DNA of 64,000 nucleotides from positions 90,653 to 154,652 of the IMG/VR virus record IMGVR_UViG_3300032232_001415, one strand, 5' to 3'. Below are positions 3,193-23,536 of this stretch, piece after piece. The stretch comes from a virus (Duplodnaviria > Caudoviricetes). Both the position numbers and the translations under genes were made by a program. The notes beneath the pieces are model-generated. The model was not told the origin of the DNA, ran no database searches, and worked only from the letters and a program-made list of their open reading frames with translations. How positions within the stretch are numbered: the stretch's first letter is position 1; each line of letters starts with the position of its first letter.

Positions 3193-3225
3193 TATTAACC
3201 TCTTTTATAAAAAAATGTATATTAT

Positions 3226-6200
3226 TTAATTAATACTAATACCACCCTCAGTACTTGCTCTTAATTTATCAAACGCATTTTTAACACTATCTCTGACTAA
3301 ATCTCCTATCGGTCCCTGTAATATATTCTGTAATGCTGATGCTCCATTAATAACTACTTCTACTTTATGAGTACCTTCTACATTAATTATTGGTGGTAAA
3401 TTAATTTTTTGTAATTCTGATACAAAATTATTAAATTTATCAGTAAATTGGCTCAATCCATCTAGTCCAATATTATTTGGTGCTCCATTATTAGATACAC
3501 TATTTCCAGTAGTCGCACCACCAGAAACTATCTGTCTTTGATAGTCTTGTAACGCTTTAGTTGCTACTGTTATAGCATTATTAAAATCTCTAGAAGATTG
3601 TGTTAATGTTGTCAATATTTGACCAAATTCAGGAGAATCATTCTTTGTGGTATTCTGACTATTAGTTAAAGAAGGTGCCATATAACCAAGGTTAGCGTTA
3701 TAATTTCTCATAGTGTTATATGTTAGTGGATCTCTATCCTGAATAGAACTTAGTCTGCTTTGAAGACCACTTGGAAGAGAACGTCCGCTATCTTCATATT
3801 TTCTAGCAGAGACAAGGGATCTCATATCTTTATCTTCTCGATATGATCGTCTTCTTCTTTCCATTTCGTCTTGATATGCTTTTCTCTTTCTTTCTGCTTC
3901 TTCTTTGTATACTTCTCCGCCAGTAGCATACGCCCCAGCATTGATGCTCTTTAATAATGGTAGGTGTTTCTGAGTAGATTCTCTGTTTACTACAAATTCG
4001 CCCGGAGTTAACATGGCCGGAACAGTATCTGTGCCTTTTGGTTGATATGGAACTAACGTTCCAGCAGAAGCATATACTATGCCTCCTCTCTTATATCCCA
4101 TAGATTTCATTATTAGTTTTAAGGTATTATCATATAAATTATTAAAATCATTAATATTTACTGTGTCGGCATCATTATACATTGCTCTGTCTATATCTTG
4201 TTGACTAGATCCTTTAATCAAATCCATAAATTGAACCATATTGGTAAATACTTCCATACCGGGCATTTGTGTTTGATATAAGGTGTCGTGGCCAGTACGG
4301 CCTCTATGTAATTTTTGAACTAATGACCAACCAGCTTTGTTAGTTAAATAATTATTCACATCAGCAGAAATATCAGTTTTCTTGCCGTATCCATCACTAA
4401 TTTTTCCTTCATACATATCTTGCGTATATCCCATTCCTCCTCTAGTGCTAATGTCTTGTAGGGCGTGTGCCATTTCATGTTGAACTACTCCTTTTTGTAT
4501 CTGTTCTTTGTTGAACATCATCCCATTATCTGTTTCTGGCAGACCCCTTTTTTCAGCACCAGCTCTGCCCATAAATCTTCCACGACCCCACTCAGACTCA
4601 GGAAATTCTTTTAAATCAACCCCATAATTTAATGATCCTCCAAAACCAATACGGTTTTTATGCTTATTTTCTCCACTTTTAGACTTACTAATCAATTTTT
4701 TTGCACCCTCTGGGCTACTAGTATATGGTAGTAGCTTTTGAATGAATTCTTCTCTCGCAGCTATCATCGTATCAAAATCCGTTACGTTTATTTTAGCATA
4801 TTGTCCTGCTCCCGCGAAGGTTGATTCCTGTCGATTCGGTCTAGGAGGCGGAGTATTAACAGCAGGATCACGAGGCCCCATTGTTTCGTGGGGCAAGCTC
4901 TCTGTTTTTGGATTTAATCTTTTTACGCCAGCTTCAGGATCCAGAGATCCAATTTCTGGATCCAATATATTTTGTTTAGGTCTTAGTGACTTATTTAGTA
5001 TGTCTGGTAGTTTTCTATTTTGCGGATCTAACTCATTTGCTTGTAATAGTCCATCTTTGTTGATATCCCAAAATTTAAAAATAACAGAAAGTTCATCTTT
5101 GGTTAAATATCCATCTTTTAAGCGAGTTAGATTAGTATCACTATCAATCATGAATCCCATAATAAAGTCGGTTTTATCATATCCTTTGAATTCCTCCTTC
5201 CTTCTTTGGGTCTGTGTTTGGGCAGACCTGAACACGTTATCAAAAGATGCTTGAGTCTTTGACATCCCCTCAGGAGTATATAATTTTTCATCTCTTATTC
5301 TTTTTAATGCTTCAATATTGTTTGGAAGTTTTGCATATTCTCCCTTCCATCTTCCATCATAACCGGATCCGCGGTCTTTGCCAAATAGGCCCTCGCCACC
5401 GCCATTTGGTTTTGGGCCCAAAATATTTACTTTTAACTCACTTATAGCTTCTCTTCTTTCAGCTATTTCTTTTTTTCTTAGCTCTTTCTCCATTCTTCGT
5501 TTTTCTATTCCTTCTCTTTTTGGTCTTTCTGCTTCCCATTTCGCGCGTTCTCTGATGTCTCTATCAATTTTTTCTCTAAGAGCCATATCATCAGACGAAA
5601 GTCCTCCATTTTGTAAATAATTAACCATTCCACCATATTGTTTTGACTGTGGTGTTAAATGAGGTAAAGGGGGAGGTAATTGTGGAGTATTTCTTCTTCT
5701 TGTTTTCTCGGCTTCGCTATCAAATTTATTATTTACCGGAATTTGACTATACTGAAAACGCTTGTATTCTTCTATCATATCTAGAGCAAATTTAATTTGC
5801 TCATATTCTTCTTTGTCTATCGCAGCATCTTTGCGCTGTTTTTTACCTTCCAAATAACCAGATGCTCGTAATCTTTGCTGTAGTTCGGACATTGCTCGAT
5901 TACCTGTAGGAGCTAATTCAGCATTTAATTGTTTTCTTAGTCTATCAAGCATTGCTGCTTTTTGTTTTTCTTCTTGTACTTTTTCTCCTTGTATTCTTCT
6001 GTCATTTAAAGCTTTAGCTCTGGGGCTTTTAAATGGAATATAAGATCCTTCTTGAGCATAAACAATACCACCCTTATATAATGACATATAATCTTCTGGA
6101 AGAGTTATTGGCTTTTCTAAAGTTTTCTGGACTCTTCTGGTAAGATCGAATTCTTCTTTATCTAAAGCTTCCATTCGTCGCTTCATATGAGGAGCATCTT

Positions 6201-9200
6201 TATCAACGTGTCCATTATCAATCATTCTTTGATACTCTGCTCTTCTAGCTTTATAAATTTCTCTTATTAAATCTAGTGGTCTATCATGAAATTTATCTTG
6301 TGAATCTCTGGTAGCAGCATATTCTCTACGTCCTGATGTCATTATGTCAGACAGTTGTCTACTAGCCAAACTAGTCTTTAAATCTGGAGTTAATTCATCA
6401 ACAGACAATGTCCTTGATTTTTCGGCAACTTCTGGCGGGAATAAAAATTCATGCTGTTTCATTCTGCTATGCTGGGCTAGTGGATCTTTTTTCATTGAAG
6501 CATGAGACAGTCTGTATCTTTCTGCTTCTTTTATGGGCATTTCTAACATTCTTAGTTGTAAACTCAGCTTGTCTAAATCTGTTAAATCATCTGAATCTTG
6601 GGTTTGTGATCTTGATTGAGCATAAAATCTTAATGCTTTTGGAGCTTCACTCTCATCCATTGGGAAGAACCATCTTCTTCTGTTCGCTAAAATACCTCCT
6701 GGTTGTTCTGATAATGTTTGACTGTACTCTGATGAGCCTTTTTTGTCGCTTGGATTAGACGCTTCAACTCTCAAGAATCTAACAACTTCATCCAGTTTTG
6801 TATGTTGACCAGCGTATGGATACATTTTTTCATATCCTGGCTTAACACGCATATTAAGAGATCTAATTTGATCAGCAGTAGAGTATTGTATTGATGGCTC
6901 GTCTATATTAGACTGTCTTCTATTTCTTCCTATGGGGGATCCTTTTTGTCTAAGATTTGATCCAACGGAGGCTAATTGAAGCATATCTTCAGCAACTTGT
7001 AATCTTCCATGAAAAGATCCTAATTGTTGACTTTCGTGGAATGGACTAAGAACCCTGTTTGGTCCTTTACCCTGAGCATGTATCGATGGTATTCCTTGTT
7101 TATCTACTACTGTCTTTGTCATAGCATCATACCAACCATTATATTTTCCACTATTTTTTCCACTATCTAACCATGTTGTATAGTTGGGTGCGAAAGGTCT
7201 CTGGTCTTGTTTATTTATAGATGGCGATTCGGTTCCTTCTGTAATCTTAACATTTTCACTATGATAATATGGTTTTCCGCCTTTTTGTAAATAATTAACC
7301 ATTCCGCCTTTCTTGAATCCATAAGCTTTCATAACTTTTTTTAACATTTCTTGAGCCAAAGCATTTTGTCCAAATTTTGGATGATCCATTTTTTCAATCA
7401 GGCTAGTAAATAATTCATTTGGCTTAGCCCAAATATCATCAGAACTATAATCTTTTTGACCAGAATAAAGATCTGGCCAACCTTTTGGATCATATAGAAA
7501 ATCTTTAATATCATTTTTTATGACGCCTAACTTTCCTGCTTTGTATTGTGTTAAAGAATCTGTGCTGCGAAAAGTATGAGCACCACTAGAATGTTGTATA
7601 GCATGACCCATCTCATGTTGAACCATAGCTTCTGTGCTATTTCTATCTTTAAAAGCAAGGTGTGTTCCCCTGGGATCTAAAGTATTTGTTGTAGCTTCAC
7701 CCATCGCTGTAGGATGACCAATAGCACCTGGACCCCAAGATGTTGATCTAATTCCAAAGTCTTGTTTTCTAAGAGCTAGTAATCTAGCTACTCCTTTCGG
7801 ACCACTAGTATATGGCATTAATCTTGAGACGAGATCATTAGCAGATGCATGCATTTGATCAGAATTACTAACATCAATTAATTTTCTATTGCCATAAGTT
7901 TCGGTATTTTGAGGATCCTGATCATATTTTTGTTCAGAAGGTTGCATATCGCCAGGAAGTTGCATACCGCCAGGAAGTTGCATACCGCCAGGAAGTTGAC
8001 TATTACGACTACCGCCACCAACAGGTCGGTAGTTACCATTGGCTCCTGGAAGAGTAAACCCTCCATCTTGTAGATAAGCAACTAATCCTCCCAAACTCTT
8101 ATTTTGCGGTTTCATACCAGCAGCAGCTCTGTCTTTATCATTTGCAAAACGACCAAAAGATTTCTTATCAAGAAGCAATGGTCTACCATCTGGTCTAATA
8201 ATTCTAATATCACCATCAGATGTTACACTATCAAAACGACCCATAATAGATTCTTCTTCCTTACCATCATTATTTAAGTCCCATTTTTTATCACCATACC
8301 AAACTCTTTCGCCAAAAGCCAAGTTCGGCATTTCTCCTCTTCCAACAGAGCCAGATAAATATGGATACTTTTCTGCTTGTTTTTGTTTCATATCTCTTCC
8401 AGCTTTGCCAGATAAATATGGATATTTATCATCAAAATTAGGAGCACTAACCGGTGGCTTCGGAGCAGGAGTTGGTGACGGTTTTGATGGAGCACTAACC
8501 GGTGGCTTCGGAGCAGGAGTTGGCGACGGTTTTGATGGAGCACTAACCGGTGGCTTCGGAGCAGGAGTTGGCGACGGTTTTGTGTTAGTGCCAGTTGTAG
8601 GCGTGGGCGACCCCCCAATACTGCCCCATTTTACAGTATCTCTGATCGTTAAATCATCCGGCCCTCTGCCAGTTTTGGATAAATCCACCGGCTGAGATCT
8701 TCTATCTTTATCTTGTTGTTCTTTGATAGGTTGCTCTTTTAAGAATTTATTTCTGGCTTCTATTTGCTGTTTGAGCAACATTAATCTTTGCTTCAAACTT
8801 AAGTTTTCTGGATCCGGATAGCGACCAGACAATATTTCATCTAGGGTGGGACGTCTTCCTTTTAAGAAATCTCCATCTTTATCTCTTGGCATATTATCAG
8901 CAGAAGATTCTCCAAAAAATCTTCTTTTTGCATTAATTCTATCTGTCTGTGCTTTTCTATCTTTTGTATTCCATGGATTATATTCTCCTGGACGCAATGG
9001 TCTGTCTTTACCGACACCCTGAACTTCATCAAGAAGTGACGTTACATTTTTACGAGCATAGGACTCATCATCTTGATGCATCATAGGTAGCCTATCCCAT
9101 GCTTGGGAATTCATTCTGTCTTTCATTATCTTAGCATATACTGTATCAACACCAATATTATTACCTTTTTTATCTGTTTTAAATAAATCTTGTCCTAAAA

Positions 9201-12200
9201 TAGAGCGGAATGTTTTTTCATACCATGTACTAACCACCGGTGCTGGGCCGTATGGTTTGGGACGAGGACCACCATACTTGTCCTCCAGATATCCTTGAGT
9301 AACAGTAGGCACCTTCAAACCCCATTGAGCATAAACTACTCCACCATTATTCAAATGTTTAACATCTCCTCCCTTACTACTATTAATAGCTTTTAATAAA
9401 GGAAGATGTTGAGAGGTAGATCGCGCATTAACAACAAATTCTCCGGGTGTAAGCATCGCGGGAACAGTATCCGTTCCCTTAGGTTCAAAATTAATTAATT
9501 TACCCGAACTAGCGTATACTACTCCGCCACTGCTAAAACCACTACTAGCAGCAACTTTATCTAATGTCTTTTTAGTATCAGATGTTGTTCCATTTATATT
9601 TTTTAATAATGGATTAGCATAGTTTTGGTTTTTAATATTATTATCATAAATTTTACTACTAGTATCTTTACTAGATATACTGTTTATTCTAGTATCAGAA
9701 ACTAGTTTCTTAACATCTTTTATTTCTTTCAAGGCATTTTGATTATTAATATTTTGAGAAAAATCTGATCTAATTTTAGATGATGCTAATCCTCCATCGG
9801 CCAAATAATTTACTGATCCACCTTTGTTTTTATTAATAGACTGCAATAGTGGAAGATTTTCTTTGGTTGCTCGTGCATTAACTACAAATTCTCCAGGAGT
9901 AAGCATAGCAGGAACAGTATCCGTGCCTTTTGGTTCAAAATTAATTAATCTACCAGAACTAGCATATATCACACCTCCATTACTAAAGTTACCAGCAACC
10001 ATTCCAGTAACAGTATTTGGAAATAAGAATTGAGCAGTTTGTTGGCTTACTCCAAGATTATTTAATCGGGCCGCTGAAGTATTTGCATCTTCTCCTCTTT
10101 TAATAAATCCTTTGTCAATCATTCTATTAATTAAATTCATTCTAAGATTAGCTTGTTGTGCTCTGGTAAGTGAACTTCCTCTGGCTGCGGCTTTTTCAAA
10201 ACTAGACATAGTAGCAAGAGACTTTACGGCCAATGCTTGTTGTTGTCTTTCTAATAATGGTCTTCTTTGAATAGCAATTGCTTTGTCTCTGGGATTAGCA
10301 AGCTGTGTTATTTCATCATTACTAAGTTTAAGTATCTTTTTATCTGTTGCGCTTATTGTTCCTTGCTGAGACATAACATCTGCCCAAGCGCTAAGCTGTC
10401 TATCATTAAATGGCATGAATATAGCTTGAGCAGTATCTGCACTCATATTGTAGTTTTTTACAAAATATTCAATATTATCCTTAGCCAAACCACCAATATT
10501 CCATTTATCCTGTAATCTTCTTAATACATTTTTTCTCCATCCTTCTGCTCTTCTCGGATCAGTTGGAGGATTCATCCCTGATATACCGGCCACTAATTTA
10601 AATCTTTGTAAACTTCTTCTTTCAGCTTGAGAAGCTTCTCTTCTGTCTCTCATTCTTCTGGCAGACTCTGCTCGCGCTTCATCTTTTTTATCTGCTTCTA
10701 TTTTAGCTTTTTCATCACTCTTAGCCTTATCATATTCGTCCCATTTTTGTTTTCTTTCTTCAGGACTAAGATCTTTAAATTTAGCATTAGTATCTACAAT
10801 CTGAGTATTTACTTCATTTATTTTTCTACCATAATATGTTTCTATCTCTTTGATTTTTTTTGCATGGTCTGCTCTTTTACGTTCTAATATGATAGCATTA
10901 TTTTCTTTAGAATATCTACCCTCAGGTTTAATATCTGATCCATATAATTCATAATCTGCCATAGTAAGAACGGAACCTTGATCATCCATCTTTCTTTGTA
11001 AGCTTGCTCTAGCTTCAGTCATTTGTTGTTGCAGATATGCTCTTTGTCTTGCAAGCTTATCTACTTCTTCTATTTTTTCTGGTATTATTGGTTTATTTAT
11101 ATATTGATCAGCTTGTTTTGCTACAGCGGATGGAATTCTAACATTATTATATGTAGAAACTAAAGAACTTCCCAGATTTAACAAATTTTGTCCAGCATTC
11201 TGTATTCCTTCAATTCCTTGATTAATATTTTGTTCTAATCCTGGTCTTTCATAAGTATTAAACATAAATGTTTCATTTGCTTTGTGAGCTCTTTCTTCTT
11301 CTTTTCTTTTTTGCTCACTTTTAATCTCTTGTTCTTTCTGAAGGACAATATAATCATTAGTTAGTCTTTCTAACTTAGCATCTTCATCAGTATATCCTGA
11401 TCCACCTAAATATGGATTTTGATGCACCGGTAATGATCCATTCATGAAAAGAGAATTTCTTTCTCCATTCTGATTATATATTTCTTCCTTAAAGTTTTTA
11501 TCAAGATATTTATCAACATAGCCGATTGGATTGTTACTACTTAATGCTTGATCTATTGTGGATTGAGATAATCCTTGTTCTTGAGCAAATCTTGTAAAGC
11601 GGATTTCAAAAGTTAAGGTGTCTGTATCATACTTGCCTATTTCATTTCTTGCTTTTTCAATATCTCTTTTTACTCTTGCTCGTCTACGTGCCCATCTAAT
11701 CGCGGTTGTTGTGAATCCTTGTGTCATTTGAAATTCGCGACCACTAGCTGTACCAATTTCAGCAGATGGTAGTCCATAATTTCTTCTTTCAGTTTCCTGT
11801 CTAAGTCTTTCGGCTTCCGCGCTAGCGGAGGCAGCGCCACCAATAGCTACTGATGTTCTTCCTACTGCTGCTGGTATTCCTCTTCCTGGTATCCATGTGC
11901 TAGGACGAGAAATGCTCATATCTGTACCAAAAACATTTCCAACAATATTGGTTCCAATATTTCCTTCTTCCATTTGTTGTCTGGTTTCTTCGTTTTTTGC
12001 TCTAATATATGCTGGAGTATCATATACTGCTGATCCTATTTCATAAGCTGACTGCACACCAATTTCCGTAAGAATCATAGCAGGACCTTGAGGGGCACGT
12101 AATGGTGCTGGAGCATTAGGCCATATCACAGATGGCCTAGTTACTGGCATATTAGCAGCTGGTATTGCTGCTCTAAGTCCTTGTCTTCCTCCGCTTCTAT

Positions 12201-15200: not shown

Positions 15201-18200
15201 CAGCCATCGGAATAGCAAATGCTGCTGCTAGTCCTTTATTTTGCCAACTTGAAGTACTGTTTCTTCTAGCTTCTATTTGATCTTCGGTTAAAACTTTACC
15301 AGTTAATGTTGTTTTGCCAGTTACAAATCCTTTAACATTCTTTAGCATTCCTCCTGTTGTGCTAGCGGTTACCGAAGCGGCCTTGGATATTTGTTGGAAA
15401 AATCCAGCAGACTGCTTAGCGCTATTAGTCATGCTATTCACTATTTGATCTAAACGCGCCTGAGACATAGTAGAAGAAGATCTATTAATAAAAGGCGGAG
15501 GAGCAGCAATCTGACTTCCCCTAACTCGTCCTTCTGCTGGACCAAACAATGATTCATATTGATAAGTATATCCTATACCCCTATTTGGAGCAGAGGCTTC
15601 AAAAGCTTCTTGGCTGCCTCTAGTACCAACTTTTGTTGTATCTGCTCCTGGTCCTGTGATTCTACGATTACCTTTTACTCTGCCTCGTTCGTCAACCTCA
15701 AATCCTCCAACAACATCTCCTCTGGAGGCTGCTCTTCTTTCTAGTCTTGCTTGTTCTATATCTGCTCTGTTTACAGGTATGGCAGTAGAAGCTTTTTGTT
15801 CATCAGTTAATCTACTACCGCTAGAAGTTTTCAATTGTTGAGGAACCATAGACGTTGGTCCCTTAGGAGGACCTTGTATACTATCTGTAACTTCTTTTCT
15901 AGCCTTATCCAAAGCTTCTCCAAGACTCATTCCTCCCTTAATTAATTGTGCCGCAAGTTTTTTAGCCTGTTGCTCAAGACCCATATCATCCAAACTTTTT
16001 GTAAGTCCTCCATCAACAAATTTTTGCACAGTACCGACACTTCCACCCTTATTAAATCCTAGTATTTTATCAGCACGATTTAATTTATTTAATCTTGGTA
16101 ATCCTATACTTTGTGCCGCTCTTTTATTAATAACAAATTCACCAGGAGTTAAAAGAGCAGCAACAGTATCTTCTGAATGTCCTCCACTAGCAAATTTTCT
16201 AAACATTCCAGAATAACCCACTTTGCCGCCAGTATGAAATTTTGCCACTTCTTTTGACTCTGGAATTCCATATTGTTGTCTAAAATATCTTTGAAATTCT
16301 TTTATGGCTTTTCCTCTGCTTCCACTATCAATGGTTCTTTTAACTTCTGTGGGGATATTAGGATCAATACCAAATATTTTTGCTGCTTTAGGCCCAATAC
16401 CCATTGGGAAGTCAATTGGGCGAGTTCTTAAAGCATCATCTAATATTGTAGCATCTGCTGATCCAAAAATTTGCTCTAATAAAGCACCCTCAATATTACC
16501 TTGTCCTAATGTTTCTCGTTGTTTTTTTGTTAATTTCTTGGGAGATATTCCCAGAAGTTTGGATGCTCCTCCTACAATTTCTTCTGTTTTTCCACTAAGA
16601 TAATCAATTACATTTTGATATTGATTTGGTAAGCCTCTTTGAACTATTGAAGCATCTATTGATCTTTCTTGTCCAGATGAATCGACTCCAAGATTCCAAG
16701 TTTCTGGCCCTAATAGTCCAGTATAACCCAACGGATTTAATCCAACTAGCCCCAACTGCTGAGACGATAACACCGCACTAGTAGTATCTGATAATGCTTG
16801 TGCTGATTTGGTTCCTTGAGATTCATTAAATTTTTGTATTAAGTAATCTCTAGTAGCAAAATAATATGCTTGTTTTTCGGGATTAGTTGCTGGAGGTAAG
16901 CTGGTTTGCCAATATTTTAATTTACCTCCATCAGCAGTGTCTCTTACTGTTTTTCCTCCGAATGGACCAAAACTTGGATCACTTGGTAGTCTTTCAGATC
17001 CAAATCTTTTTAATATCTCTGTTCCTTGTGTTGGTAATATTCCAGAGGATTTCTTGACCTGGGTGGCCTTTTCTACATTTTGTAGTATTGCCGCTTCTAG
17101 TCCAGAAGGCATCGCTGTTGAAACTCCTCCAAATTCACCACTCATCTGTTCTGATAATTGCGATGCTATAGCTTCCTTTGTTATATCTGATGGCTGTGCG
17201 GATACTGAGGATTTTCTTGACGGATCTATTCCATAAGTTTCTGGATATTTAGCAGATAATGCTCTGATTATATTATGCGCCCTATATCCAAATGCTCCTT
17301 TAGACACTCTGTCTCTTTTATCTCTTATCTGTTTAACTTGATCAGCTATTTCTGGATAATTCTTCTTTAAATCAGCACTAACATTACCATAAGGACCACC
17401 AGGAGCATTTGATAATATTTCTGTAACCTCAGTATTGGATCGTGCTTTATCTTGATCAACAAATTTTTGTATTTCTTCAATTAGCATAGGAACCATAGTG
17501 CTACGATTACGTAATTGTGCTCTATTGCCCATTAATACTGATGCTATATCAGGATGCAAGAGGCTAGTTAGTGTTTTATCATCGCCATGAAATAACGCAT
17601 CTCTAACTTTGGTAGCGCTAATATCTTCTATTCTAGGAATGTCTTTAACATCTATTCCTGCTCTTTGGTATTTACCTAATGTTTTATCATCTTTACCAGA
17701 AGTTATTGCCATAGCTCCTTTTAGTTTAGCGAATTTTCTTCTATCTCCACTACCAGCAACTTCCATAAATTTTGATAAACCGCCAGCAGGCTGACCTTGA
17801 GTGCTAATCATAGCATTTCCAAAATTAATTTGGCTGAATAAAGCTCTTAAATCTTCTTGAAAAATACCATATCGTGCAGCATGATCTATTCCTTCTTTAC
17901 CAACAACCATTGGAAGATCCGTGGCAACATTAACAACAATATCTTCTAAAGAAGCGTTTGGATTTTTAGCTAACATATTCTCTAATAAGGTATCTAATGC
18001 TCCTCTGTGTCCTCTGGTTGGAGGAGCAAAACCGCCCATATAAAATCCACCAGCCTGAACCATTTCCGGTAATTCACTATCTTTTTTACGTCTTAAACCA
18101 AAACTATCTTTTTTTCTTCCAAGAACAGTGGCTTTTTTACCCAATTCGTCTCGTAGTATAGTTTCTTCCAAAGCAAAATCAGCGTCAGCTCCTCTTGTGG

Positions 18201-21200
18201 TTCCTGGTTTACGACCATATAAGCCTTCTCCTGTAGTATCTCTACTATCTCTATTTAATCTAATCTGATCTTGCTCACCTCTATTATTAGAACTTAATAC
18301 ATATGCTCTATCAACATCTTTTAAATAAGCATCTAGCTTAGACTGACTAGCTGTGGAAGTTAATACAATGACTTCATTAACTTTTTCTATATCTTCGGGC
18401 GTTAATATTTGAGAGCGAACTGTTTTTCTTAAAGTCGCATCATCAGTTGCTCCTTTGCCAGTTGCCAAACTACTTTTTCCACTTCCAGCAGCTCCAGCAA
18501 TAGCTCTAAACTTAGATAATGATCCAGTTTTTCTGGCTTTAGCAGCTAACTCTCCAAGCTTTGTTGTATAATCACTAACATCTGTTATTCCAAGTTTTTC
18601 CATTGCTTTATCAACAATACTAGCATTTGCAGGATCTCTTAAAACATCAGTATCAACTATCCCGATATTTCTTAATACCTGTCCTCCAGCACCATAAGCT
18701 TGTCTTTTAATACCAGCATTACTGAATAATTCATTTAGCGTAGAATCTAAAATTCCCTGCATATTAGAGTCTAGTTTAGGAGCGTTCTGAATAAGAGTAG
18801 TTAAAAATTCTTCTTTACCATAATCTTCTACTTTTCCTATCGTATCTTGTCTCTGTCCACCTTTTAACAGTATCTCATTAATTTTTGGATTGATTGGTCG
18901 ATACTCTCTAGCATTTTTCTTTTGTCCAGACTCTACCCACATAGAGTATGCTTCTTTAGATAGTTCAGGATTTGCGCCTCTTCCCCCGAAGTTCATAGTT
19001 TCTTGTCTCAAATTTTGTAAAACAGTATCAAGTAAACCATTCTTATAAGAGCGTCCATAAACAACATCAGCACTATTATAACTTCCACCCAATGCATCAA
19101 ATGCGTCTGCAAGACCATCATTGTCTCCATTAAATAATTGAGACACTCTTTCTTTATATTTTGTAAAACTATCTTCTGATTGGGTTCGTAAAGAATTCAA
19201 TAATTGATGTGTTAATTCATGATATAAAACATTTTTTGGTTGATTACGATCAAAAGCATTACTAGCCATCGAAACAAATCCTCGACCTGTTGATTCTAAA
19301 ATGCCCTTCTTTTGCTCCATAAGACCTTTACGAGCAACTGCTTTTTTGCTCATTATATCTGATACTTTCTTACCCAATGCCATTTTTTCATCCATAGATT
19401 TATTAAAAGCCACAGTATCATAACTGAATGATCCATCTTCATATGTTGTTACTGGTGTTTTTAAGATTTTTTTGGTTTCTTTTGTTTTTTCATCTAGTAG
19501 TTTTTGGTATCCAAATAAATCTTGTTCATCAGCTTGTGTGAATCCAAAAGGTTCTAATCCTTTATCGTCATATCCCTGAGCCCCAAAAGGATCTCTACTA
19601 AATTTTCCACGATATCCATAAGTTTGTAATTTACCACCAAAATCTATAGTTTGTGGTAAAACTTTACTTAAGTCTTCTTCTGGTAATCCTATAAATTTAG
19701 CAAAATCTGATAGATTACCCAATAATTCATTACGGCTAATTTTGGTATTAAATAAACTTAAAAATCTTTTACGATCAAAAGGTTCGCTCTGGAATTTTTG
19801 TTGTACTTCTGCAGGATCGACCGTTATTCTTTCATTGGTAGGATAAGGATCGAAAGCATTATTTACTCTTTCTAGATCTAGTTTTTTCTGCAATTCTTTA
19901 GCATAAGCATTAGTAATACGCTTAGGAAATTTTGTCTCTCCTGTTCCAAAGGGTATAGCTTCTGCTTTTCCTCCAGCCATAAATTTTTGAATCATTCCTC
20001 CAATATTTTTCTTTTGTATTTTTGAAGATCCAGCTGGAGAAAAGTCTTTAATTGTCTCTTCAACAGTTTTTCCAGGAAATCTTTTTTTATATTCTTCTTT
20101 TGTCATTGAGCTAGCAGCGCCACTACCATATGGTACTGCTAATCCAGAACTCATTAATTTATTAGCTAATTCATTATCTTCTAATAAAATTCTACCATAT
20201 TTTTCATTTTTTTTATTTCCTGATGGTCTCAATAATTTTAATATATCTTGATTAGATTTTGTTTTATAATGATCTGTAGCAACTTCTTTAGCTTTTAAGC
20301 CCAATGTTTTTTGCCAACTATTTTTTCTTCCTCCTTTATTTGTTACTTCAAAAGCATCAACTCCTAAGAGTCTTGTTCCTGTATCAAAAGGATCATCTGT
20401 TGGAGTTACATTGATATTCAATGTATCTCCATCAGTAACTCTATTTAAGTTATTGACAGAAACTATTCCTCCAATAGCATATTTTTTTCTTTTTCTTGAT
20501 GCTCCAGACTTAATAGTGCCTCCAATTCCATATTTATTCATTCTATGTAAATTACTAGCCCCTATAGTCTGCACAGCCCTTTTGCGTATAACAAATTCTC
20601 CAGGCTCTAACATTGCTGGAACAGTATCTCCATCACCGCTACCAGGAACAACTCCTCCTCTGGCAAATTTATGTATCATTCCACCACTATTTTTTTTTGT
20701 TGTTCTTAAACCTCCTGCAAAACCGGTTGCAAATTGACCTAAAGCACTTACTCCTCTAATAGCAGTAATAGCAGTTAGTGCTGGAATAACACCCTTAGCA
20801 GCATCTGCTATTCTTATAAGTCCACTAGTTAAATCAAGAGACATTTTAATAAAGTTTTGGAATCCACTATCATTTCCAATTGATCTAATTAAAGCTGTAA
20901 ACTCTTCTCTTACTTTTGTAAGCTGAACAGCAAATGCTTGTTGTGCTGTGGTAGCATCTCTTGCCAATGAACCTTGTCCTCTTTGAGCAACTACCAATGC
21001 TTGTTGTGCTGTTGCAAATTCTTGAATAAGTGGTATAACTTTACCAATTTGTCGGAATCCACCAAGTTCTTCAACTATTCTACTAAATCTTAGATCTCTA
21101 GGATCTAATTGACTAAGACCAGCACTTAGTCTTTTAACAGCTTCATATGGCCCAACGAATTTTCCTTGTAAATCTGTTAAGTTAACTCCAAATTCTTTTA

Positions 21201-22248
21201 AGGCCTCTATAGTTCCGCCTCTTTGAACACGAGTAAAAATTGTTCTTAAACCAGTAGCAATAGTTTCTGCGCTTTCACGAGTTGTTGCTCTTACACTAGT
21301 AAATACTGCTAAAAATTCATTCAATGCGTCTTTACCTTCGCTAACTCCTCTGCTAGATGCGGCAAAAACACCACCGGTACGCTGAATAGCAGTAATTAAG
21401 TCGCTAGATTCAACGGCGAATTTAGCAGCAACAGCATTGACAGATCCTAGTGCTGATCCGAGATCTTTAGCACTAATACCGAACTGTCTCATAAGGGCGA
21501 TACTTCCTTCTACTGTCTCACTTAAATTATCGAAAGATGGAGCAAGAGCACTTTGGGCCAAAGCTTCTAGGGCCTTTTCTGTATCTCTTGCGCTCAAACC
21601 AGCCTGAGCTAGTGTGCTGGAAACACTGATTAATTCTCTAGATGAAACACCAAGGCTTGTGGATAGTCCAGTAATTTGATTAACAAGCTTGCTAAGATCT
21701 GATATGGAGGTATCTGTTACCTGAGAAACTCTAACTAACTCTCTATTAAAATCAATAAAATCTTTAGATGCTGATGATATTGCATTTCCAATTTTATATA
21801 CAGCCCCGGTAACAGTTGCAAATGCGGCAAATCTACGAATAGCAAGAGCGCCTTGTCTTCCAAATTCTTCAAATTCTGTTCTAGCCTGTTGTACAGCTTT
21901 TGCTGATTTATTAGCATTACTAGTCAATTGATTATTAGCACTAGCAGCACTTTGAATAGCTCTTGGTAAAGAACTAATATTAGATACTGTTTGTTGTGCA
22001 GTTCTTGATAACGTGGCTAAACTAGTATTAGCTTGTCTAGATAATGTGGAAGTATTTCTTAGACTATCATTAAGTCTATTAAATGCTTGAGAAAGATTAG
22101 AGACATTTCTTGCCACACTAGGATCTATTTTTACACTAACATTAGCATCAATTGTTCCTAGCTGTCTACGAATATCTGCAACTACTGTGCGAATATTTGA
22201 TGGACCACGAAGATTAATTTCTGCTGTTAAATTAAATCCTTTAGCCAT
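3226..22248 (-). CDS. Giant tail tape measure protein (6340 aa) with multiple embedded enzymatic cargo domains
   Basis: N-terminal TP901-type TMP core (FNRELVRVSQVT...RESAETIATGLRTIFTRVQ); Gly/Ala hydrophobic segment near 15030-15240 followed by long helical regions; six copies of the TMP-associated DTVPAMLxPGEFV motif; position right after the tail tube and chaperone genes; AGGA RBS. Confidence 0.93.
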   Translation of the reverse strand: MAKGFNLTAEINLRGPSNIRTVVADIRRQLGTIDANVSVKIDPSVARNVSNLSQAFNRLNDSLRNTSTLSRQANTSLATLSRTAQQTVSNISSLPRAIQSAASANNQLTSNANKSAKAVQQARTEFEEFGRQGALAIRRFAAFATVTGAVYKIGNAISSASKDFIDFNRELVRVSQVTDTSISDLSKLVNQITGLSTSLGVSSRELISVSSTLAQAGLSARDTEKALEALAQSALAPSFDNLSETVEGSIALMRQFGISAKDLGSALGSVNAVAAKFAVESSDLITAIQRTGGVFAASSRGVSEGKDALNEFLAVFTSVRATTRESAETIATGLRTIFTRVQRGGTIEALKEFGVNLTDLQGKFVGPYEAVKRLSAGLSQLDPRDLRFSRIVEELGGFRQIGKVIPLIQEFATAQQALVVAQRGQGSLARDATTAQQAFAVQLTKVREEFTALIRSIGNDSGFQNFIKMSLDLTSGLIRIADAAKGVIPALTAITAIRGVSALGQFATGFAGGLRTTKKNSGGMIHKFARGGVVPGSGDGDTVPAMLEPGEFVIRKRAVQTIGASNLHRMNKYGIGGTIKSGASRKRKKYAIGGIVSVNNLNRVTDGDTLNINVTPTDDPFDTGTRLLGVDAFEVTNKGGRKNSWQKTLGLKAKEVATDHYKTKSNQDILKLLRPSGNKKNEKYGRILLEDNELANKLMSSGLAVPYGSGAASSMTKEEYKKRFPGKTVEETIKDFSPAGSSKIQKKNIGGMIQKFMAGGKAEAIPFGTGETKFPKRITNAYAKELQKKLDLERVNNAFDPYPTNERITVDPAEVQQKFQSEPFDRKRFLSLFNTKISRNELLGNLSDFAKFIGLPEEDLSKVLPQTIDFGGKLQTYGYRGKFSRDPFGAQGYDDKGLEPFGFTQADEQDLFGYQKLLDEKTKETKKILKTPVTTYEDGSFSYDTVAFNKSMDEKMALGKKVSDIMSKKAVARKGLMEQKKGILESTGRGFVSMASNAFDRNQPKNVLYHELTHQLLNSLRTQSEDSFTKYKERVSQLFNGDNDGLADAFDALGGSYNSADVVYGRSYKNGLLDTVLQNLRQETMNFGGRGANPELSKEAYSMWVESGQKKNAREYRPINPKINEILLKGGQRQDTIGKVEDYGKEEFLTTLIQNAPKLDSNMQGILDSTLNELFSNAGIKRQAYGAGGQVLRNIGIVDTDVLRDPANASIVDKAMEKLGITDVSDYTTKLGELAAKARKTGSLSKFRAIAGAAGSGKSSLATGKGATDDATLRKTVRSQILTPEDIEKVNEVIVLTSTASQSKLDAYLKDVDRAYVLSSNNRGEQDQIRLNRDSRDTTGEGLYGRKPGTTRGADADFALEETILRDELGKKATVLGRKKDSFGLRRKKDSELPEMVQAGGFYMGGFAPPTRGHRGALDTLLENMLAKNPNASLEDIVVNVATDLPMVVGKEGIDHAARYGIFQEDLRALFSQINFGNAMISTQGQPAGGLSKFMEVAGSGDRRKFAKLKGAMAITSGKDDKTLGKYQRAGIDVKDIPRIEDISATKVRDALFHGDDKTLTSLLHPDIASVLMGNRAQLRNRSTMVPMLIEEIQKFVDQDKARSNTEVTEILSNAPGGPYGNVSADLKKNYPEIADQVKQIRDKRDRVSKGAFGYRAHNIIRALSAKYPETYGIDPSRKSSVSAQPSDITKEAIASQLSEQMSGEFGGVSTAMPSGLEAAILQNVEKATQVKKSSGILPTQGTEILKRFGSERLPSDPSFGPFGGKTVRDTADGGKLKYWQTSLPPATNPEKQAYYFATRDYLIQKFNESQGTKSAQALSDTTSAVLSSQQLGLVGLNPLGYTGLLGPETWNLGVDSSGQERSIDASIVQRGLPNQYQNVIDYLSGKTEEIVGGASKLLGISPKKLTKKQRETLGQGNIEGALLEQIFGSADATILDDALRTRPIDFPMGIGPKAAKIFGIDPNIPTEVKRTIDSGSRGKAIKEFQRYFRQQYGIPESKEVAKFHTGGKVGYSGMFRKFASGGHSEDTVAALLTPGEFVINKRAAQSIGLPRLNKLNRADKILGFNKGGSVGTVQKFVDGGLTKSLDDMGLEQQAKKLAAQLIKGGMSLGEALDKARKEVTDSIQGPPKGPTSMVPQQLKTSSGSRLTDEQKASTAIPVNRADIEQARLERRAASRGDVVGGFEVDERGRVKGNRRITGPGADTTKVGTRGSQEAFEASAPNRGIGYTYQYESLFGPAEGRVRGSQIAAPPPFINRSSSTMSQARLDQIVNSMTNSAKQSAGFFQQISKAASVTASTTGGMLKNVKGFVTGKTTLTGKVLTEDQIEARRNSTSSWQNKGLAAAFAIPMAAENIGSSIGGAKGAGVAAGGTAFGTAVSIGSQFGPYGALVGAIAGTVLAVEGYNKGVAQAEKELSEKKIENTSAGIDKNFERLSRNAKDTAATNSVLQGIKTISEEEGKIQTKNDQLKQPGVLQKFGNYITAGYMFNTTKQNDTELGQERAATNRAGADAAIKLLSNQVTAYSGKGFGAAMGSLGPNQDAVKKQIAEGSAEFQAKNAKLERALADKYTDDATKEEIRNEQKALIETYFKQETAGLQIAAADAERAKASSKLAKAINMSTVSISRTFANMDSAVAKTSVSLQNVSSRLEDIANGTVSLKTSFNAKNIISNPNAYSSNQQSGAMRQVSGFFGSDAKFVEQLASFGGDARTIASSMAAQAQQAGTDPELAAENIQRALTDKLIKSFGDNRLTDNLRKQIASAIDAQRAKKQEGGEFDLDAFINELTGLNDLTEANKQLMESTTKIITAVEEGLNIYANAIEKSIALQSEINNLYAENIVNQKNIDIRQKELLGKEVGVSERGSARVQAAEIKAGVKTGSLNTTDLMAAYKIASQELNRVSEQKRSFESSGANLADPRVQAQLQSFIRQIADLNNQITKTKDGLKNIASNIQSSIEDAMNEIQKRVAKIETVRQASVGFAEKMVTGTPQELMDMRNSYELVTNTLNGQIRTIQQSAAANEAYSKIIKDGGTQQEAMTAAQEAYSNENKQAFATFNEMLQMMGLEGKESNQLRADMIRGMARNNGLQNDPFVTKALSLLEKDTGEDPIVKQLNALIDVQQTALSDATQALAGTLNEQQITLIQTAGEAIRKAISETTINFNTQQLREIGLGIQRPGNVMNKASGGMVYASSGKFIPRGTDTVPAMLSPGEFVVNSRATKNNLPLLNAINKNSGGPVYLKKGSSKPVTAADAAADALADMDAQPKPGKPKPTARQRAARAGSAAFSAATSSGVSGNVARNVLRTAGGAAVSAVAGENAGIVVEEIGAISDIGVTAAQSAGLPSRASGLTAQAANTAYRSGGRQGLRAAIPAANMPVTRPSVIWPNAPAPLRAPQGPAMILTEIGVQSAYEIGSAVYDTPAYIRAKNEETRQQMEEGNIGTNIVGNVFGTDMSISRPSTWIPGRGIPAAVGRTSVAIGGAASASAEAERLRQETERRNYGLPSAEIGTASGREFQMTQGFTTTAIRWARRRARVKRDIEKARNEIGKYDTDTLTFEIRFTRFAQEQGLSQSTIDQALSSNNPIGYVDKYLDKNFKEEIYNQNGERNSLFMNGSLPVHQNPYLGGSGYTDEDAKLERLTNDYIVLQKEQEIKSEQKRKEEERAHKANETFMFNTYERPGLEQNINQGIEGIQNAGQNLLNLGSSLVSTYNNVRIPSAVAKQADQYINKPIIPEKIEEVDKLARQRAYLQQQMTEARASLQRKMDDQGSVLTMADYELYGSDIKPEGRYSKENNAIILERKRADHAKKIKEIETYYGRKINEVNTQIVDTNAKFKDLSPEERKQKWDEYDKAKSDEKAKIEADKKDEARAESARRMRDRREASQAERRSLQRFKLVAGISGMNPPTDPRRAEGWRKNVLRRLQDKWNIGGLAKDNIEYFVKNYNMSADTAQAIFMPFNDRQLSAWADVMSQQGTISATDKKILKLSNDEITQLANPRDKAIAIQRRPLLERQQQALAVKSLATMSSFEKAAARGSSLTRAQQANLRMNLINRMIDKGFIKRGEDANTSAARLNNLGVSQQTAQFLFPNTVTGMVAGNFSNGGVIYASSGRLINFEPKGTDTVPAMLTPGEFVVNARATKENLPLLQSINKNKGGSVNYLADGGLASSKIRSDFSQNINNQNALKEIKDVKKLVSDTRINSISSKDTSSKIYDNNIKNQNYANPLLKNINGTTSDTKKTLDKVAASSGFSSGGVVYASSGKLINFEPKGTDTVPAMLTPGEFVVNARSTSQHLPLLKAINSSKGGDVKHLNNGGVVYAQWGLKVPTVTQGYLEDKYGGPRPKPYGPAPVVSTWYEKTFRSILGQDLFKTDKKGNNIGVDTVYAKIMKDRMNSQAWDRLPMMHQDDESYARKNVTSLLDEVQGVGKDRPLRPGEYNPWNTKDRKAQTDRINAKRRFFGESSADNMPRDKDGDFLKGRRPTLDEILSGRYPDPENLSLKQRLMLLKQQIEARNKFLKEQPIKEQQDKDRRSQPVDLSKTGRGPDDLTIRDTVKWGSIGGSPTPTTGTNTKPSPTPAPKPPVSAPSKPSPTPAPKPPVSAPSKPSPTPAPKPPVSAPNFDDKYPYLSGKAGRDMKQKQAEKYPYLSGSVGRGEMPNLAFGERVWYGDKKWDLNNDGKEEESIMGRFDSVTSDGDIRIIRPDGRPLLLDKKSFGRFANDKDRAAAGMKPQNKSLGGLVAYLQDGGFTLPGANGNYRPVGGGSRNSQLPGGMQLPGGMQLPGDMQPSEQKYDQDPQNTETYGNRKLIDVSNSDQMHASANDLVSRLMPYTSGPKGVARLLALRKQDFGIRSTSWGPGAIGHPTAMGEATTNTLDPRGTHLAFKDRNSTEAMVQHEMGHAIQHSSGAHTFRSTDSLTQYKAGKLGVIKNDIKDFLYDPKGWPDLYSGQKDYSSDDIWAKPNELFTSLIEKMDHPKFGQNALAQEMLKKVMKAYGFKKGGMVNYLQKGGKPYYHSENVKITEGTESPSINKQDQRPFAPNYTTWLDSGKNSGKYNGWYDAMTKTVVDKQGIPSIHAQGKGPNRVLSPFHESQQLGSFHGRLQVAEDMLQLASVGSNLRQKGSPIGRNRRQSNIDEPSIQYSTADQIRSLNMRVKPGYEKMYPYAGQHTKLDEVVRFLRVEASNPSDKKGSSEYSQTLSEQPGGILANRRRWFFPMDESEAPKALRFYAQSRSQTQDSDDLTDLDKLSLQLRMLEMPIKEAERYRLSHASMKKDPLAQHSRMKQHEFLFPPEVAEKSRTLSVDELTPDLKTSLASRQLSDIMTSGRREYAATRDSQDKFHDRPLDLIREIYKARRAEYQRMIDNGHVDKDAPHMKRRMEALDKEEFDLTRRVQKTLEKPITLPEDYMSLYKGGIVYAQEGSYIPFKSPRAKALNDRRIQGEKVQEEKQKAAMLDRLRKQLNAELAPTGNRAMSELQQRLRASGYLEGKKQRKDAAIDKEEYEQIKFALDMIEEYKRFQYSQIPVNNKFDSEAEKTRRRNTPQLPPPLPHLTPQSKQYGGMVNYLQNGGLSSDDMALREKIDRDIRERAKWEAERPKREGIEKRRMEKELRKKEIAERREAISELKVNILGPKPNGGGEGLFGKDRGSGYDGRWKGEYAKLPNNIEALKRIRDEKLYTPEGMSKTQASFDNVFRSAQTQTQRRKEEFKGYDKTDFIMGFMIDSDTNLTRLKDGYLTKDELSVIFKFWDINKDGLLQANELDPQNRKLPDILNKSLRPKQNILDPEIGSLDPEAGVKRLNPKTESLPHETMGPRDPAVNTPPPRPNRQESTFAGAGQYAKINVTDFDTMIAAREEFIQKLLPYTSSPEGAKKLISKSKSGENKHKNRIGFGGSLNYGVDLKEFPESEWGRGRFMGRAGAEKRGLPETDNGMMFNKEQIQKGVVQHEMAHALQDISTRGGMGYTQDMYEGKISDGYGKKTDISADVNNYLTNKAGWSLVQKLHRGRTGHDTLYQTQMPGMEVFTNMVQFMDLIKGSSQQDIDRAMYNDADTVNINDFNNLYDNTLKLIMKSMGYKRGGIVYASAGTLVPYQPKGTDTVPAMLTPGEFVVNRESTQKHLPLLKSINAGAYATGGEVYKEEAERKRKAYQDEMERRRRSYREDKDMRSLVSARKYEDSGRSLPSGLQSRLSSIQDRDPLTYNTMRNYNANLGYMAPSLTNSQNTTKNDSPEFGQILTTLTQSSRDFNNAITVATKALQDYQRQIVSGGATTGNSVSNNGAPNNIGLDGLSQFTDKFNNFVSELQKINLPPIINVEGTHKVEVVINGASALQNILQGPIGDLVRDSVKNAFDKLRASTEGGISIN
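3907..4098 (-). repeat. TMP linker repeat copy 6 (YKRGGIVYASAG...PKGTDTVPAMLTPGEFVVN...LPLLKSIN...YATGG)
   Basis: Motif read from the translation; boundaries approximate. Confidence 0.9.
7941..7998. repeat. 18-bp tandem repeat, about 3.2 copies, encoding QLPGGM
   Basis: gttgcataccgccaggaa at 7941 (1 mismatch), 7959 and 7977. Confidence 0.95.
8441..8582. repeat. 48-bp tandem repeat, about 3 copies, encoding Pro-rich KPSPTPAPKPPVSAPS
   Basis: Units start at 8441, 8489 and 8537; near-identical with a single t/c difference. Confidence 0.97.
9320..9540 (-). repeat. TMP linker repeat copy 5 (FSSGGVVYASSG...PKGTDTVPAMLTPGEFVVN...LPLLKAIN)
   Basis: Motif read from the translation; boundaries approximate. 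Confidence 0.9.
9790..9990 (-). repeat. TMP linker repeat copy 4 (FSNGGVIYASSG...PKGTDTVPAMLTPGEFVVN...LPLLQSIN)
   Basis: Motif read from the translation; DNA similar to copy 5, differing mostly at third codon positions. Confidence 0.9.
12544..12730 (-). repeat. TMP linker repeat copy 3 (ASGGMVYASSG...GTDTVPAMLSPGEFVVN...LPLLNAIN)
   Basis: Motif read from the translation; boundaries approximate. Confidence 0.9.
16005..16245 (-). repeat. TMP linker repeat copy 2 (FHTGG...FASGGHSEDTVAALLTPGEFVINKRA...FNKGG...FVDGG)
   Basis: Motif read from the translation; boundaries approximate. Confidence 0.9.
20540..20700 (-). repeat. TMP linker repeat copy 1 (SGGMIHKFARGG...GDTVPAMLEPGEFVIRKRA)
   Basis: Motif read from the translation; boundaries approximate. 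Confidence 0.9.
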
Positions 22249-23240: not shown

Positions 23241-23533
23241 AGATCTTCATCCTTTTTAATTGGAAAATTATATGTATAATTATTTTTAAATACTCCACCA
23301 TATTTATAAAAGTCATCATTCAACTGTCTAATCTGTCTATTTCCATAGTTCAGAATATCATTTCTTAAAAATTCCCATCTGTCTAAAAAATCTTCTTCCA
23401 ATGATGACAATTCGCCATCTTTATCTTGTCCCCATAGATGACCAAAATGTTGTTCTATTCGAGCTAGTGCTCCTATCATAGTAGTCTGAATTCTTTTTTG
23501 TAATGTAAATTTTAATCTTTCTGGATTATACAT
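23237..23533 (-). CDS. Hypothetical protein in tail assembly cluster
   Basis: 98-aa ORF with ATGA overlap with the downstream gene. Confidence 0.75.
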   Translation of the reverse strand: MYNPERLKFTLQKRIQTTMIGALARIEQHFGHLWGQDKDGELSSLEEDFLDRWEFLRNDILNYGNRQIRQLNDDFYKYGGVFKNNYTYNFPIKKDEDL

Positions 23534-23536
23534 ATA

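Follow-up and report, generated by a model that had tools for sequence, protein, structure and literature searches.

What does a phage tail protein of 6,340 residues hold besides a ruler? The question is raised by a gene on the minus strand of a 64,000-nucleotide (nt) stretch of viral DNA, referred to as the window, which covers positions 90,653 to 154,652 of the IMG/VR virus record IMGVR_UViG_3300032232_001415 (Duplodnaviria; Caudoviricetes). A preliminary description had read the gene as encoding a tape measure protein (TMP) loaded with cassettes, which would inject host-takeover or anti-defence enzymes along with the genome. That interpretation is partly supported by our analysis. The identification as a TMP is confirmed. 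The gene is a single open frame, its amino acids (aa) 191–384 match PF10145 in Pfam with 84.1 bits against a curated cutoff of 33.2 (E 1.5e-23), and five PHROG tape-measure families match aa 33–532. As in TMPs of the PF10145/TP901 type, the gene is present in single copy in the tail module, and the protein has hydrophobic segments (aa 486–504 and aa 2381–2400) and, where tip docking is expected, a C-terminal piece conserved in relatives. The sole other direct family match in the Pfam and PHROG scans is a PHROG endonuclease at aa 598–720; Pfam searches with whole halves and with ten separate segments gave nothing above threshold except PF10145. The reading that we favour, with a probability of about 0.6, is that the backbone has been expanded by cassettes in two bays, and that the chain is ejected and delivers the enzymes to the host.

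Relatives were collected in two ways. The N-terminal 540 aa retrieved 50 IMG/VR loci with 50–70% identity, on contigs of up to 238 kb, and a region search gave 81 further giant proteins of 3,523–7,724 aa, of which almost every one has PF10145. In at least 108 related TMPs (2,328–7,733 aa), a common backbone is combined with differing cassettes. We compared 23 full-length relatives, also of 2,328–7,733 aa and several from complete genomes with terminal repeats. The N-terminal domain is present in 23 of 23, and most of them also have the central ruler of ~1,000–1,300 aa and the last ~70 aa. Identity is 56–70% in the N-terminus and 22–32% in aa 2374–3237; together with the last ~70 aa, these are the segments that had been singled out from one sequence as ruler-like. 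The cassettes vary. Among the 23 relatives, SNase occurs in three, the HExxH module termed zincin-1 in four, with placements ranging between aa 759 and 4475, and the kinase in eight; by the presence/absence matrix, none of them has the Pro-rich, 'ART-like', EF-hand, or short cassettes. Over the whole family, the cassette comprising the kinase and a nucleotidyltransferase is the most widespread (83/108).

Identity to the nearest relatives changes stepwise along the chain. It falls from 50–85% in the N-terminal domain to 25–48% in SNase, is 93–100% from about aa 750, at a short joint, to about aa 1980–2010, at long joint 2, and then drops to 15–20%. In another relative, the step lies at about aa 1190, at the GAGG junction between zincin-1 and the kinase. 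The relative P0083 is closest for the ruler (40%), aa 3808–4303 (39%), and the C-terminus (46%), but only remotely similar in the N-terminal bay. Of the 702 internal ends of high-scoring segment pairs with all relatives, 69% fall within the 15% of the length that lies at joints (joint ±15 aa); this measure is partly circular because the joints themselves are conserved, whereas the identity steps are not. Linkers and ruler are kept and the breakpoints fall on the linkers, as expected of a cassette-loaded protein. At the level of sequence, these comparisons show that whole cassettes have been swapped between phages by recombination at joints. It is scarcely credible that the frame is an artefact of chimeric assembly or of read-through of several genes: it is uninterrupted, and the same backbone order recurs on more than 100 independent contigs from many samples, in versions of 2,328–7,733 aa, several of them in complete genomes with terminal repeats. 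Misassembly, which the preliminary description had named as a possible flaw, is excluded in practice by these independent contigs.

The owner of the TMP belongs to an uncultured lineage of large phages (about 150–240 kb), probably with a non-contractile tail. Five complete relatives lack the sheath family PF04984, which fits such a tail as negative evidence only. One relative (L001/G001, IMGVR_UViG_3300035670_013228; 177,880 bp, TMP of 6,196 aa) is a provirus according to IMG/VR, and may lead to the host and to an inducible isolate.

The joints are copies of one GG-flanked module. A regular-expression and hidden Markov model scan found six long copies (Table 1) and about six short or partial ones, namely short GGxVxYLxxGG joints at about aa 750, 4143, 4720, 4981, and 5539 and a partial joint at about aa 5385. 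Such a linker family bounding the cassettes had been noticed before, with cassette coordinates that agree with ours within about 10 codons. The consensus of the long joint (~65 aa) is GGxVYASxGxLINFxPKGTDTVPAMLTPGEFVVNRxATxxxLPLLxxINxG..GGxVxYLxxGG. At the DNA level, the joints show up as repeats that are 62–78% identical in stretches of 132 nt, and two short copies share 91% identity in 33 nt. Each full-length relative has two to nine long joints. We collected 381 joint copies from the family by the anchor PGE[FYW][VI] and scored conservation at the flanking positions. The core DTVPAMLTPGEFV is nearly invariant among these copies (D 99%, T 89%, V 93%, P 96%, A 100%, M 81%, L 100%, T 87%, F 98%, and V 100%), and the protein around the joints has drifted to 20–30% identity. 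Judged by this conservation, the joint module is not a passive linker.

The module is also found outside the family, in 220 deposited phage records under TMP annotations, mycobacteriophages, Burkholderia, Brevundimonas, and a Nodularia phage among them. Lambda gpH has one copy at aa ~747–790, which matches joint 1 in BLASTP with E 1e-6; the canonical joint profile matches gpH weakly (hmmsearch E 0.015, hhalign E 0.005), and the pairwise match is the informative one. The gpH copy directly follows the glycine-rich region in which gpH is cut into gpH* and gpHC (PMC12617516). In addition, joint 6 and the 216 aa behind it resemble the joint and C-terminal region of gpH in layout. By its distribution, the joint is an old TMP module. 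The neighbourhood of the gpH copy and the gpH*/gpHC cleavage region lends indirect support, by analogy, to joints as cleavage sites. A more tentative extension, possible though doubtful to us, is that DTVPAMLTPGEFV is a programmed processing or registration site, derived from a lambda-like gpH*/gpHC junction and multiplied. The TMP would then be an injected polyprotein with a periplasm-facing C-terminal and a cytoplasm-facing N-terminal payload bay, the effectors would be freed in the host, and the phages would re-arm by cassette swaps at joints. The link to gpH offers a tractable model for how and where TMPs are cut and for the role of the joint. The cultured cyanophage Nodularia phage vB_NspS-kac68v161 (NC_048757.1 130960–140892), with a cysteine-free TMP of 3,310 aa and joints at aa 912–947 and 984–1014, could also be an experimental model.

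We then inspected the inserts between the joints. Of the enzymes proposed earlier, the SNase, P-loop kinase, and nucleotidyltransferase folds hold, and the zincins, the EF-hand, and the PD-(D/E)xK nuclease are carried by motifs only. The SNase fold of aa 595–745 is confirmed by sequence comparison: it matches phrog_452 (E 1.4e-7), an 11-homolog profile matches the PDB thermonuclease (E 1.2e-6, residues 16–126), and D12, G13, D14, R32, D37, E40, G91, and R92 are invariant in the alignment. The kinase and nucleotidyltransferase were identified in an AlphaFold2 (AF2) model of aa 1190–2005, made from 37 homologs with a mean predicted local distance difference test score (pLDDT) of 80. The P-loop domain (aa 1193–1394) is closest to zeta toxin 6eph (Foldseek probability 1.0; VIA Z 6.7, a moderate score), adenylate kinases (Z ~6), and polynucleotide kinases (PNKs). 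GAAGSGKS is conserved in homologs of the cassette, and a PDB profile search gave a match to Walker A only. The model thus confirms a zeta-toxin/PNK-like P-loop kinase fold for aa 1190–1394. Likewise, it confirms an NMNAT/PPAT-like adenylyltransferase fold for aa 1395–1700. Specifically, residues 1395–1585 match PPAT (VIA Z 11.0, root mean square deviation 2.6, 145 aa), NMNAT (Z 10.9), and NadR (Z 8.2), and also NadM, NaMNAT, and TmcAL, with PPAT, NMNAT, NaMNAT, and TmcAL lying within 1–2 Z units of one another; Foldseek gives NadM/PPAT with probability 1.0. The motifs PxTRGH and ISATxxR are invariant in 53 homologs. The third domain of the cassette has an E...D...ExK pattern, invariant in 44 homologs, and is likened to PD-(D/E)xK on this motif only. 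Its model has a pLDDT of 66–86, the Foldseek and VIA matches listed all fell on the kinase and nucleotidyltransferase domains, and no match was found for it in a PDB profile search, nor for aa 1790–2005 in a Protein Atlas feature search. Among proteins of 448–1,428 aa, a search for standalone homologs of the kinase/nucleotidyltransferase cassette found one TMP fragment only. Single-sequence phmmer against the PDB gave no match.

The three HExxH modules are putative zincins by their motif. In zincin-1, YHExxHQ is invariant in 46 homologs, and the AF2 model has a pLDDT above 90. A structure search placed the catalytic domain of anthrax lethal factor on top (Z 7.4), tied with helical noise, and neither Foldseek against the PDB nor an ESM-Atlas shape search gave a usable match. 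Pfam and PDB sequence searches, profile search included, found nothing for this module, and a Protein Atlas feature search pointed to an LPD23-bearing cluster (cosine 0.88), which is a lead only. Zincin-2 and zincin-3 are paralogs (E 8e-15), and relatedness of zincin-1 and zincin-2 is not demonstrated by hhalign (probability 4%). The sub-threshold Pfam matches of the HExxH modules are eCIS_core, M91, SprT-like, and Zn_peptidase_2, and tblastn with zincin-1 and zincin-2 against 50,697 phage records gave no match. HExxH is present in 80 of the 108 members and absent from the other 28, giants of 5,400–6,900 aa among them. The loop DINKDGLLQANE ahead of zincin-3 is a candidate EF-hand by motif: EF-hand families match below cutoff (E 0.011–0.06; EF-hand_6 with 15.9 bits against a cutoff of 25, E 0.011), and some relatives carry precomputed EF-hand matches.

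In the sequences compared, cassette families keep to fixed bays, with ATP-using enzymes N-terminal and the zincin-2/3 family C-terminal of the central ruler. SNase (33/33), zincin-1 (61/61), kinase (83/83), and nucleotidyltransferase (83/83) all start in the N-terminal 44% of the protein, and the zincin-2/3 family starts in the C-terminal 36% (21/21). The position rule is broken once, at BLAST level, by a zincin-1-like stretch that begins at aa 4475 in the relative G007. In siphophage tails, the TMP has its C-terminus at the tip, and this end exits first. In Thermus phage P23-45, gp96 (also in P74-26, G20c, and TSP4) is a TMP of 5,002 aa to which a virion RNA polymerase is fused (Chaban et al. 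2024, PMC10770324), and the polymerase is N-terminal. From the exit order and the gp96 layout together, we read the bays as envelope-facing (C-terminal) and cytoplasm-facing (N-terminal).

In the mechanism that we favour, the backbone would consist of the N-terminal PF10145 domain, a central hydrophobic and helical ruler, and a short C-terminal piece, with globular inserts in the two bays. Each insert would end in the old TMP module (GG...DTVPAMLTPGEFV...GG) or in its short GG form, and the repeated joint would act as a homology patch for cassette recombination. The whole cysteine-free chain would lie extended in the lumen of a very long tail and be ejected before the DNA, C-terminus first. 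The C-terminal bay (HExxH modules, EF-hand, and Pro-rich part) would come into contact with the envelope and periplasm. The N-terminal bay (SNase, zincin-1, and kinase with adenylyltransferase and nuclease-like domain), placed where P23-45 gp96 has its virion RNA polymerase, would arrive in the cytoplasm together with the end of the DNA. Its ATP-dependent enzymes may act there on host nucleotide, NAD, or cell-wall-precursor pools ahead of phage gene expression. Delivery into the host and function of the cassettes are thus what we infer, and a TMP-fused enzyme has its precedent already in gp96.

On this reading, the tail would have to hold the whole chain. By our own estimate, three 697-kDa chains fill ~2,570 nm³, and a 4-nm lumen of 240 nm in length offers ~3,020 nm³. 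Protein would occupy ~85% of the lumen at 240 nm and ~21% at 950 nm, the latter being near lambda. The tail of ~240 nm that the preliminary description had derived from the helical parts alone is hence physically unlikely. For the lambda TMP, six copies are now reported (PMC12617516); six copies rather than three would make the case against 240 nm stronger. Along with the case of P23-45 and its extremely long tail, the estimate favours a tail near 0.9 µm, or processing before assembly, over 240 nm with folded cargo.

Several points weigh against ejection and delivery of the cassettes. Virion presence, ejection, and cassette activity are predictions from sequence. Cysteine is absent from the 6,340 residues of the TMP and occurs 22 times in 555,067 residues across the family, compared with 0.65% in the window's other 24 open reading frames (ORFs). 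Every enzyme cassette avoids cysteine, which argues that the cassettes share the ruler's fate. Control TMPs, however, have 0/3,310 (Nodularia), 0/2,792 (Bacillus), 1/1,277 (Mycobacterium), and 0/853 (lambda gpH) cysteines; the lack is a general TMP trait, from which no more follows than that the cassettes are under TMP constraints. Enzymes of 150–800 aa are too big in their folded form for a lumen of ~4 nm and would need to be kept there unfolded and to refold later. SNase and EF-hand usually belong to Ca-rich surroundings outside the cell or in the periplasm, but the SNase lies in the N-terminal bay. As 28 of 108 members lack HExxH, the embedded peptidases are not a general means of release, and any joint-cutting activity would be located elsewhere or be intrinsic. 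The joint module as a monomer is not confidently folded in the AF2 model of joint 1 (pLDDT 37–73), and a complex prediction with three joint copies scored 0.01. Finally, the cassettes at aa 3244–4086, 4994–5384, and 1701–2005 have no assigned fold.

A long tail and Ca-binding motifs would also suit a ruler fitted with a penetration toolkit. In that case the protein would be a very long ruler for tails of ~0.35–1.2 µm, and its domains would act outside the cytoplasm, on targets such as extracellular DNA, sheath, S-layer, or peptidoglycan peptides, like the motifs of T5 pb2 and mycobacteriophage TMPs, rather than in host takeover or anti-defence. In the phages studied, a longer TMP goes with a longer tail, the 5,002-aa TMP of P23-45 'defines' its extremely long tail (PMC10770324), and our volume estimate prefers ~0.9 µm. 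SNase, EF-hand, and HExxH peptidases would suit a place rich in Ca outside the cell or in the periplasm, the zincin-2/3 family invariably lies close to the C-terminus, which exits first, and peptidoglycan-hydrolase TMPs are known (PMC12617516). What makes this account unlikely in our judgement is the commonest cassette (83/108), the kinase with its NMNAT/PPAT-like adenylyltransferase, which needs ATP and therefore a cytoplasmic site, and which sits at the position of the P23-45 virion RNA polymerase. Moreover, the Pfam scans found no lysozyme, M23, or other muralytic family.

The joints might instead serve in the producing cell. The cassettes of such an assembly-time polyprotein would be cut off there, the tail would get the backbone only, and the enzymes would act late or be packed elsewhere in the virion. 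Cleavage of lambda gpH and T5 pb2 takes place while the tail is being assembled or afterwards (PMC12617516), in lambda near the homologous joint, and the HExxH modules of 80 of the 108 members may be counted in favour, as may the fact that the lumen-volume problem would vanish and a shorter tail become possible. But 28 members are without HExxH, cysteine avoidance extends over every cassette (555,067 residues) and is hard to explain for ordinary cytoplasmic enzymes, and the strict bay positions around the ruler suggest that the topology of an ejected chain matters. The search among 448–1,428-aa proteins, described above, gave no standalone homologs of the kinase/nucleotidyltransferase cassette. 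Taken together, this makes removal of the cassettes before assembly quite improbable. We return to the favoured reading, expansion of the backbone in two bays and ejection of the chain, and compare it with known systems.

The closest of these is P23-45 gp96, and the likeness is one of architecture: a giant siphophage TMP with a cytoplasm-acting enzyme at its N-terminal side, before the membrane and ruler part. The kinase and nucleotidyltransferase are placed in this way, within the N-terminal 44% each time (83/83). Both proteins also have a metallopeptidase (at motif level in the present TMP) and hydrophobic segments, and the gp96 enzyme is believed to travel into the host along with the TMP. 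The preliminary description had stated that TMPs usually carry only muralytic domains, which overlooks gp96 (PMC10770324). Different from gp96 with its one fixed RNA polymerase, the giant TMP has about ten unrelated modules, two bays, repeated joints, and a content that is shuffled among close relatives. No RNA polymerase family turned up in the Pfam and PHROG scans of the TMP; the gp96 polymerase itself escapes scans of this kind. If the favoured reading is true, the single P23-45 case would be joined by a large lineage from the environment whose payloads are of dozens of types.

Polyvalent proteins (Iyer et al. 2017, PMC5512222) likewise combine disparate enzymes in one polypeptide encoded by a virion gene. 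Their repertoire includes a zeta-like kinase and a lethal-factor-like MPTase, which is linked to zincins via lethal factor. The overlap comprises the zeta-like kinase, HExxH, and a nuclease, and both kinds of protein are predicted to be delivered with the DNA. With SNase, kinase, nucleotidyltransferase, and HExxH, the TMP has at least two disparate enzymatic domains in one polypeptide, as polyvalent proteins do. The carriers differ, being head/MuF- or ArdC-type proteins, and a regular joint module is not a polyvalent feature; TMPs are not mentioned in the polyvalent-protein paper (PMC5512222). Of the domains that mark polyvalent proteins (LPD, MPTase-PolyVal, MuF, and ArdC-N), none has a significant match in the TMP segments (LPD25, E 0.16). 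If the cassettes are delivered, the tail lumen would be a protein-injection route reloadable by recombination, beside head-packaged polyvalent and Dar-type proteins. A unit of kinase and NAD/CoA-type adenylyltransferase could then counter nucleotide- or NAD-depleting defences before phage gene expression.

Other comparisons concern the ruler and the joints. Lambda gpH is cysteine-free as well, and its joint stands after a glycine-rich stretch, ahead of a short tip-docking C-terminal piece; it differs in having one joint, no enzyme inserts, and 853 aa, and joint cleavage in the giant TMP is put forward by analogy. TMP-related effectors of actinobacterial contractile injection systems (CISs) of the Sle1 type (PMC11126660, PMC13277306) share a TMP-like platform with exchangeable domains that is loaded into a tube and ejected. 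They are bacterial CIS cargo with a single C-terminal functional domain, unlike a phage ruler with arrays of modules. T5 pb2 and mycobacteriophage TM4 and its relatives have enzymatic motifs within the ruler, and many mycobacteriophage TMPs have the same joint. The T5 pb2/TM4 type carries one or two small cell-wall-directed motifs, whereas the giant TMP carries predicted nucleotide-directed enzymes and a nuclease. We found no description of multi-cassette TMP arrays in the literature. The modular joints hint at a natural scaffold on which tail-delivered cargo could be engineered in laboratory phage–host pairs.

Table 1. Parts of the tape measure protein gene from N- to C-terminus, with positions in the window.
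Feature	Residues (aa)	Position	Strand	Remark
Whole TMP gene	1–6340	3226..22248	(-)	6,340 codons and stop; frame uninterrupted; no cysteine
Conserved N-terminal tape-measure domain	1–516	20701..22248	(-)	PF10145 at aa 191–384; 56–70% identity, all relatives
Long joint 1	517–594	20467..20700	(-)	copy most like lambda gpH aa 747–790
SNase domain	595–745	20014..20466	(-)	DGD, R, D, E, GR catalytic positions invariant
'Zincin-1', putative HExxH module	762–1185	18694..19965	(-)	short GG joint before, aa 746–761
P-loop kinase domain (modelled)	1190–1394	18067..18681	(-)	Walker A GAAGSGKS; zeta-toxin/PNK/adenylate-kinase-like
HIGH-superfamily nucleotidyltransferase (modelled)	1395–1700	17149..18066	(-)	NMNAT/PPAT/NadR-like; helical extension
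Third domain of kinase/nucleotidyltransferase cassette	1701–2005	16234..17148	(-)	E...D...ExK at aa 1925, 1946, 1968/1970
Long joint 2 and short GG repeat	2006–2095	15964..16233	(-)	sharp recombination boundary
Central conserved backbone	2096–3172	12733..15963	(-)	glycine-zipper hydrophobic segment at ~aa 2290–2400 and helical ruler
Long joint 3	3173–3243	12520..12732	(-)	joint scan
Helix-rich segment	3244–4086	9991..12519	(-)	segment of similar size (850–1,130 aa) after the ruler in most giant relatives
Long joints 4 and 5 (about aa 4087–4165 and 4237–4320) around a 71-aa Asn/Ser-rich spacer	4087–4320	9289..9990	(-)	202-nt repeat, 76%
Pro-rich 16-aa repeats (x3) and ~60-aa RxWYGxKxWDLNNDG module	4321–4718	8095..9288	(-)	DNA repeats; module in 7 TMPs
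'Zincin-2', putative HExxH module	4733–4978	7315..8052	(-)	short GG joints either side; Pfam Zn_peptidase_2 E 0.055, sub-threshold
Orphan segment (formerly 'ART-like')	4994–5384	6097..7269	(-)	2 homologs
Charged coiled-coil-like spacer	5402–5537	5638..6045	(-)	partial joint on one side, short GG joint on the other
Putative EF-hand loop DINKDGLLQANE, then 'zincin-3', putative HExxH module	5552–6049	4102..5595	(-)	loop canonical by eye
Long joint 6	6050–6124	3877..4101	(-)	ahead of C-terminal piece, like the lambda gpH module
C-terminal region	6125–6340	3229..3876	(-)	last ~70 aa kept across the family

Among the segments without assigned fold, aa 3244–4086 keep their position among relatives, with a sequence that is barely conserved and diverges fast. 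For aa 4994–5384, the label of an ADP-ribosyltransferase (ART)-like domain is unsupported: we treat the segment as an orphan, since a search of 1.84 billion representatives gave just two homologs, each part of a giant TMP-like protein, and no Pfam family matches it. The SHD1 domain (PF03983) formerly assigned next to the Pro-rich repeats is not supported, with no Pfam match at E <= 5 or <= 1 in aa 4310–4720 and 4630–4725 or in the homologous stretches of relatives. What stands there is the RxWYGxKxWDLNNDG(K/I)E module, present in one to three copies each in seven family TMPs (for example, P0017 aa 5508–6034 and P0001 aa 4645–4710). It has a DxNxDG motif resembling a calcium loop, and no Pfam family matches it.

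Two repeat arrays lie within the C-terminal bay. At 8441–8584, three near-perfect 48-nt tandem repeats (94–100% identity) encode PSKPSPTPAPKPPVSA three times; such a recent array could shift the ruler length in small steps. At 7935–7998, directly past a short GG joint, three overlapping 18-nt repeats encode QLPGGM three times.

The TMP gene is located within a block of virion genes on the same strand, with tail-fibre/baseplate-like ORFs of up to 2,414+ aa upstream. The ORFs directly upstream (302, 98, and 343 aa; 22332–24568 (-)), at the expected chaperone site, match no Pfam or PHROG family. A 243-aa ORF inside the tail gene block (28344–29075 (-)) shows a weak likeness to sulfotransferases (Pfam Sulfotransfer_2, E 7.5e-4; PHROG galactose-3-O-sulfotransferase, E 2e-5). 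From 29075 to 63998 (-), very large tail-fibre/baseplate-like ORFs of 848, 1,883, 821, 1,878, 902, and 2,414+ aa follow in a row, and several of them have an N-terminal fibre anchor and C-terminal modules in common (phrog_24074, 17490, 28536).

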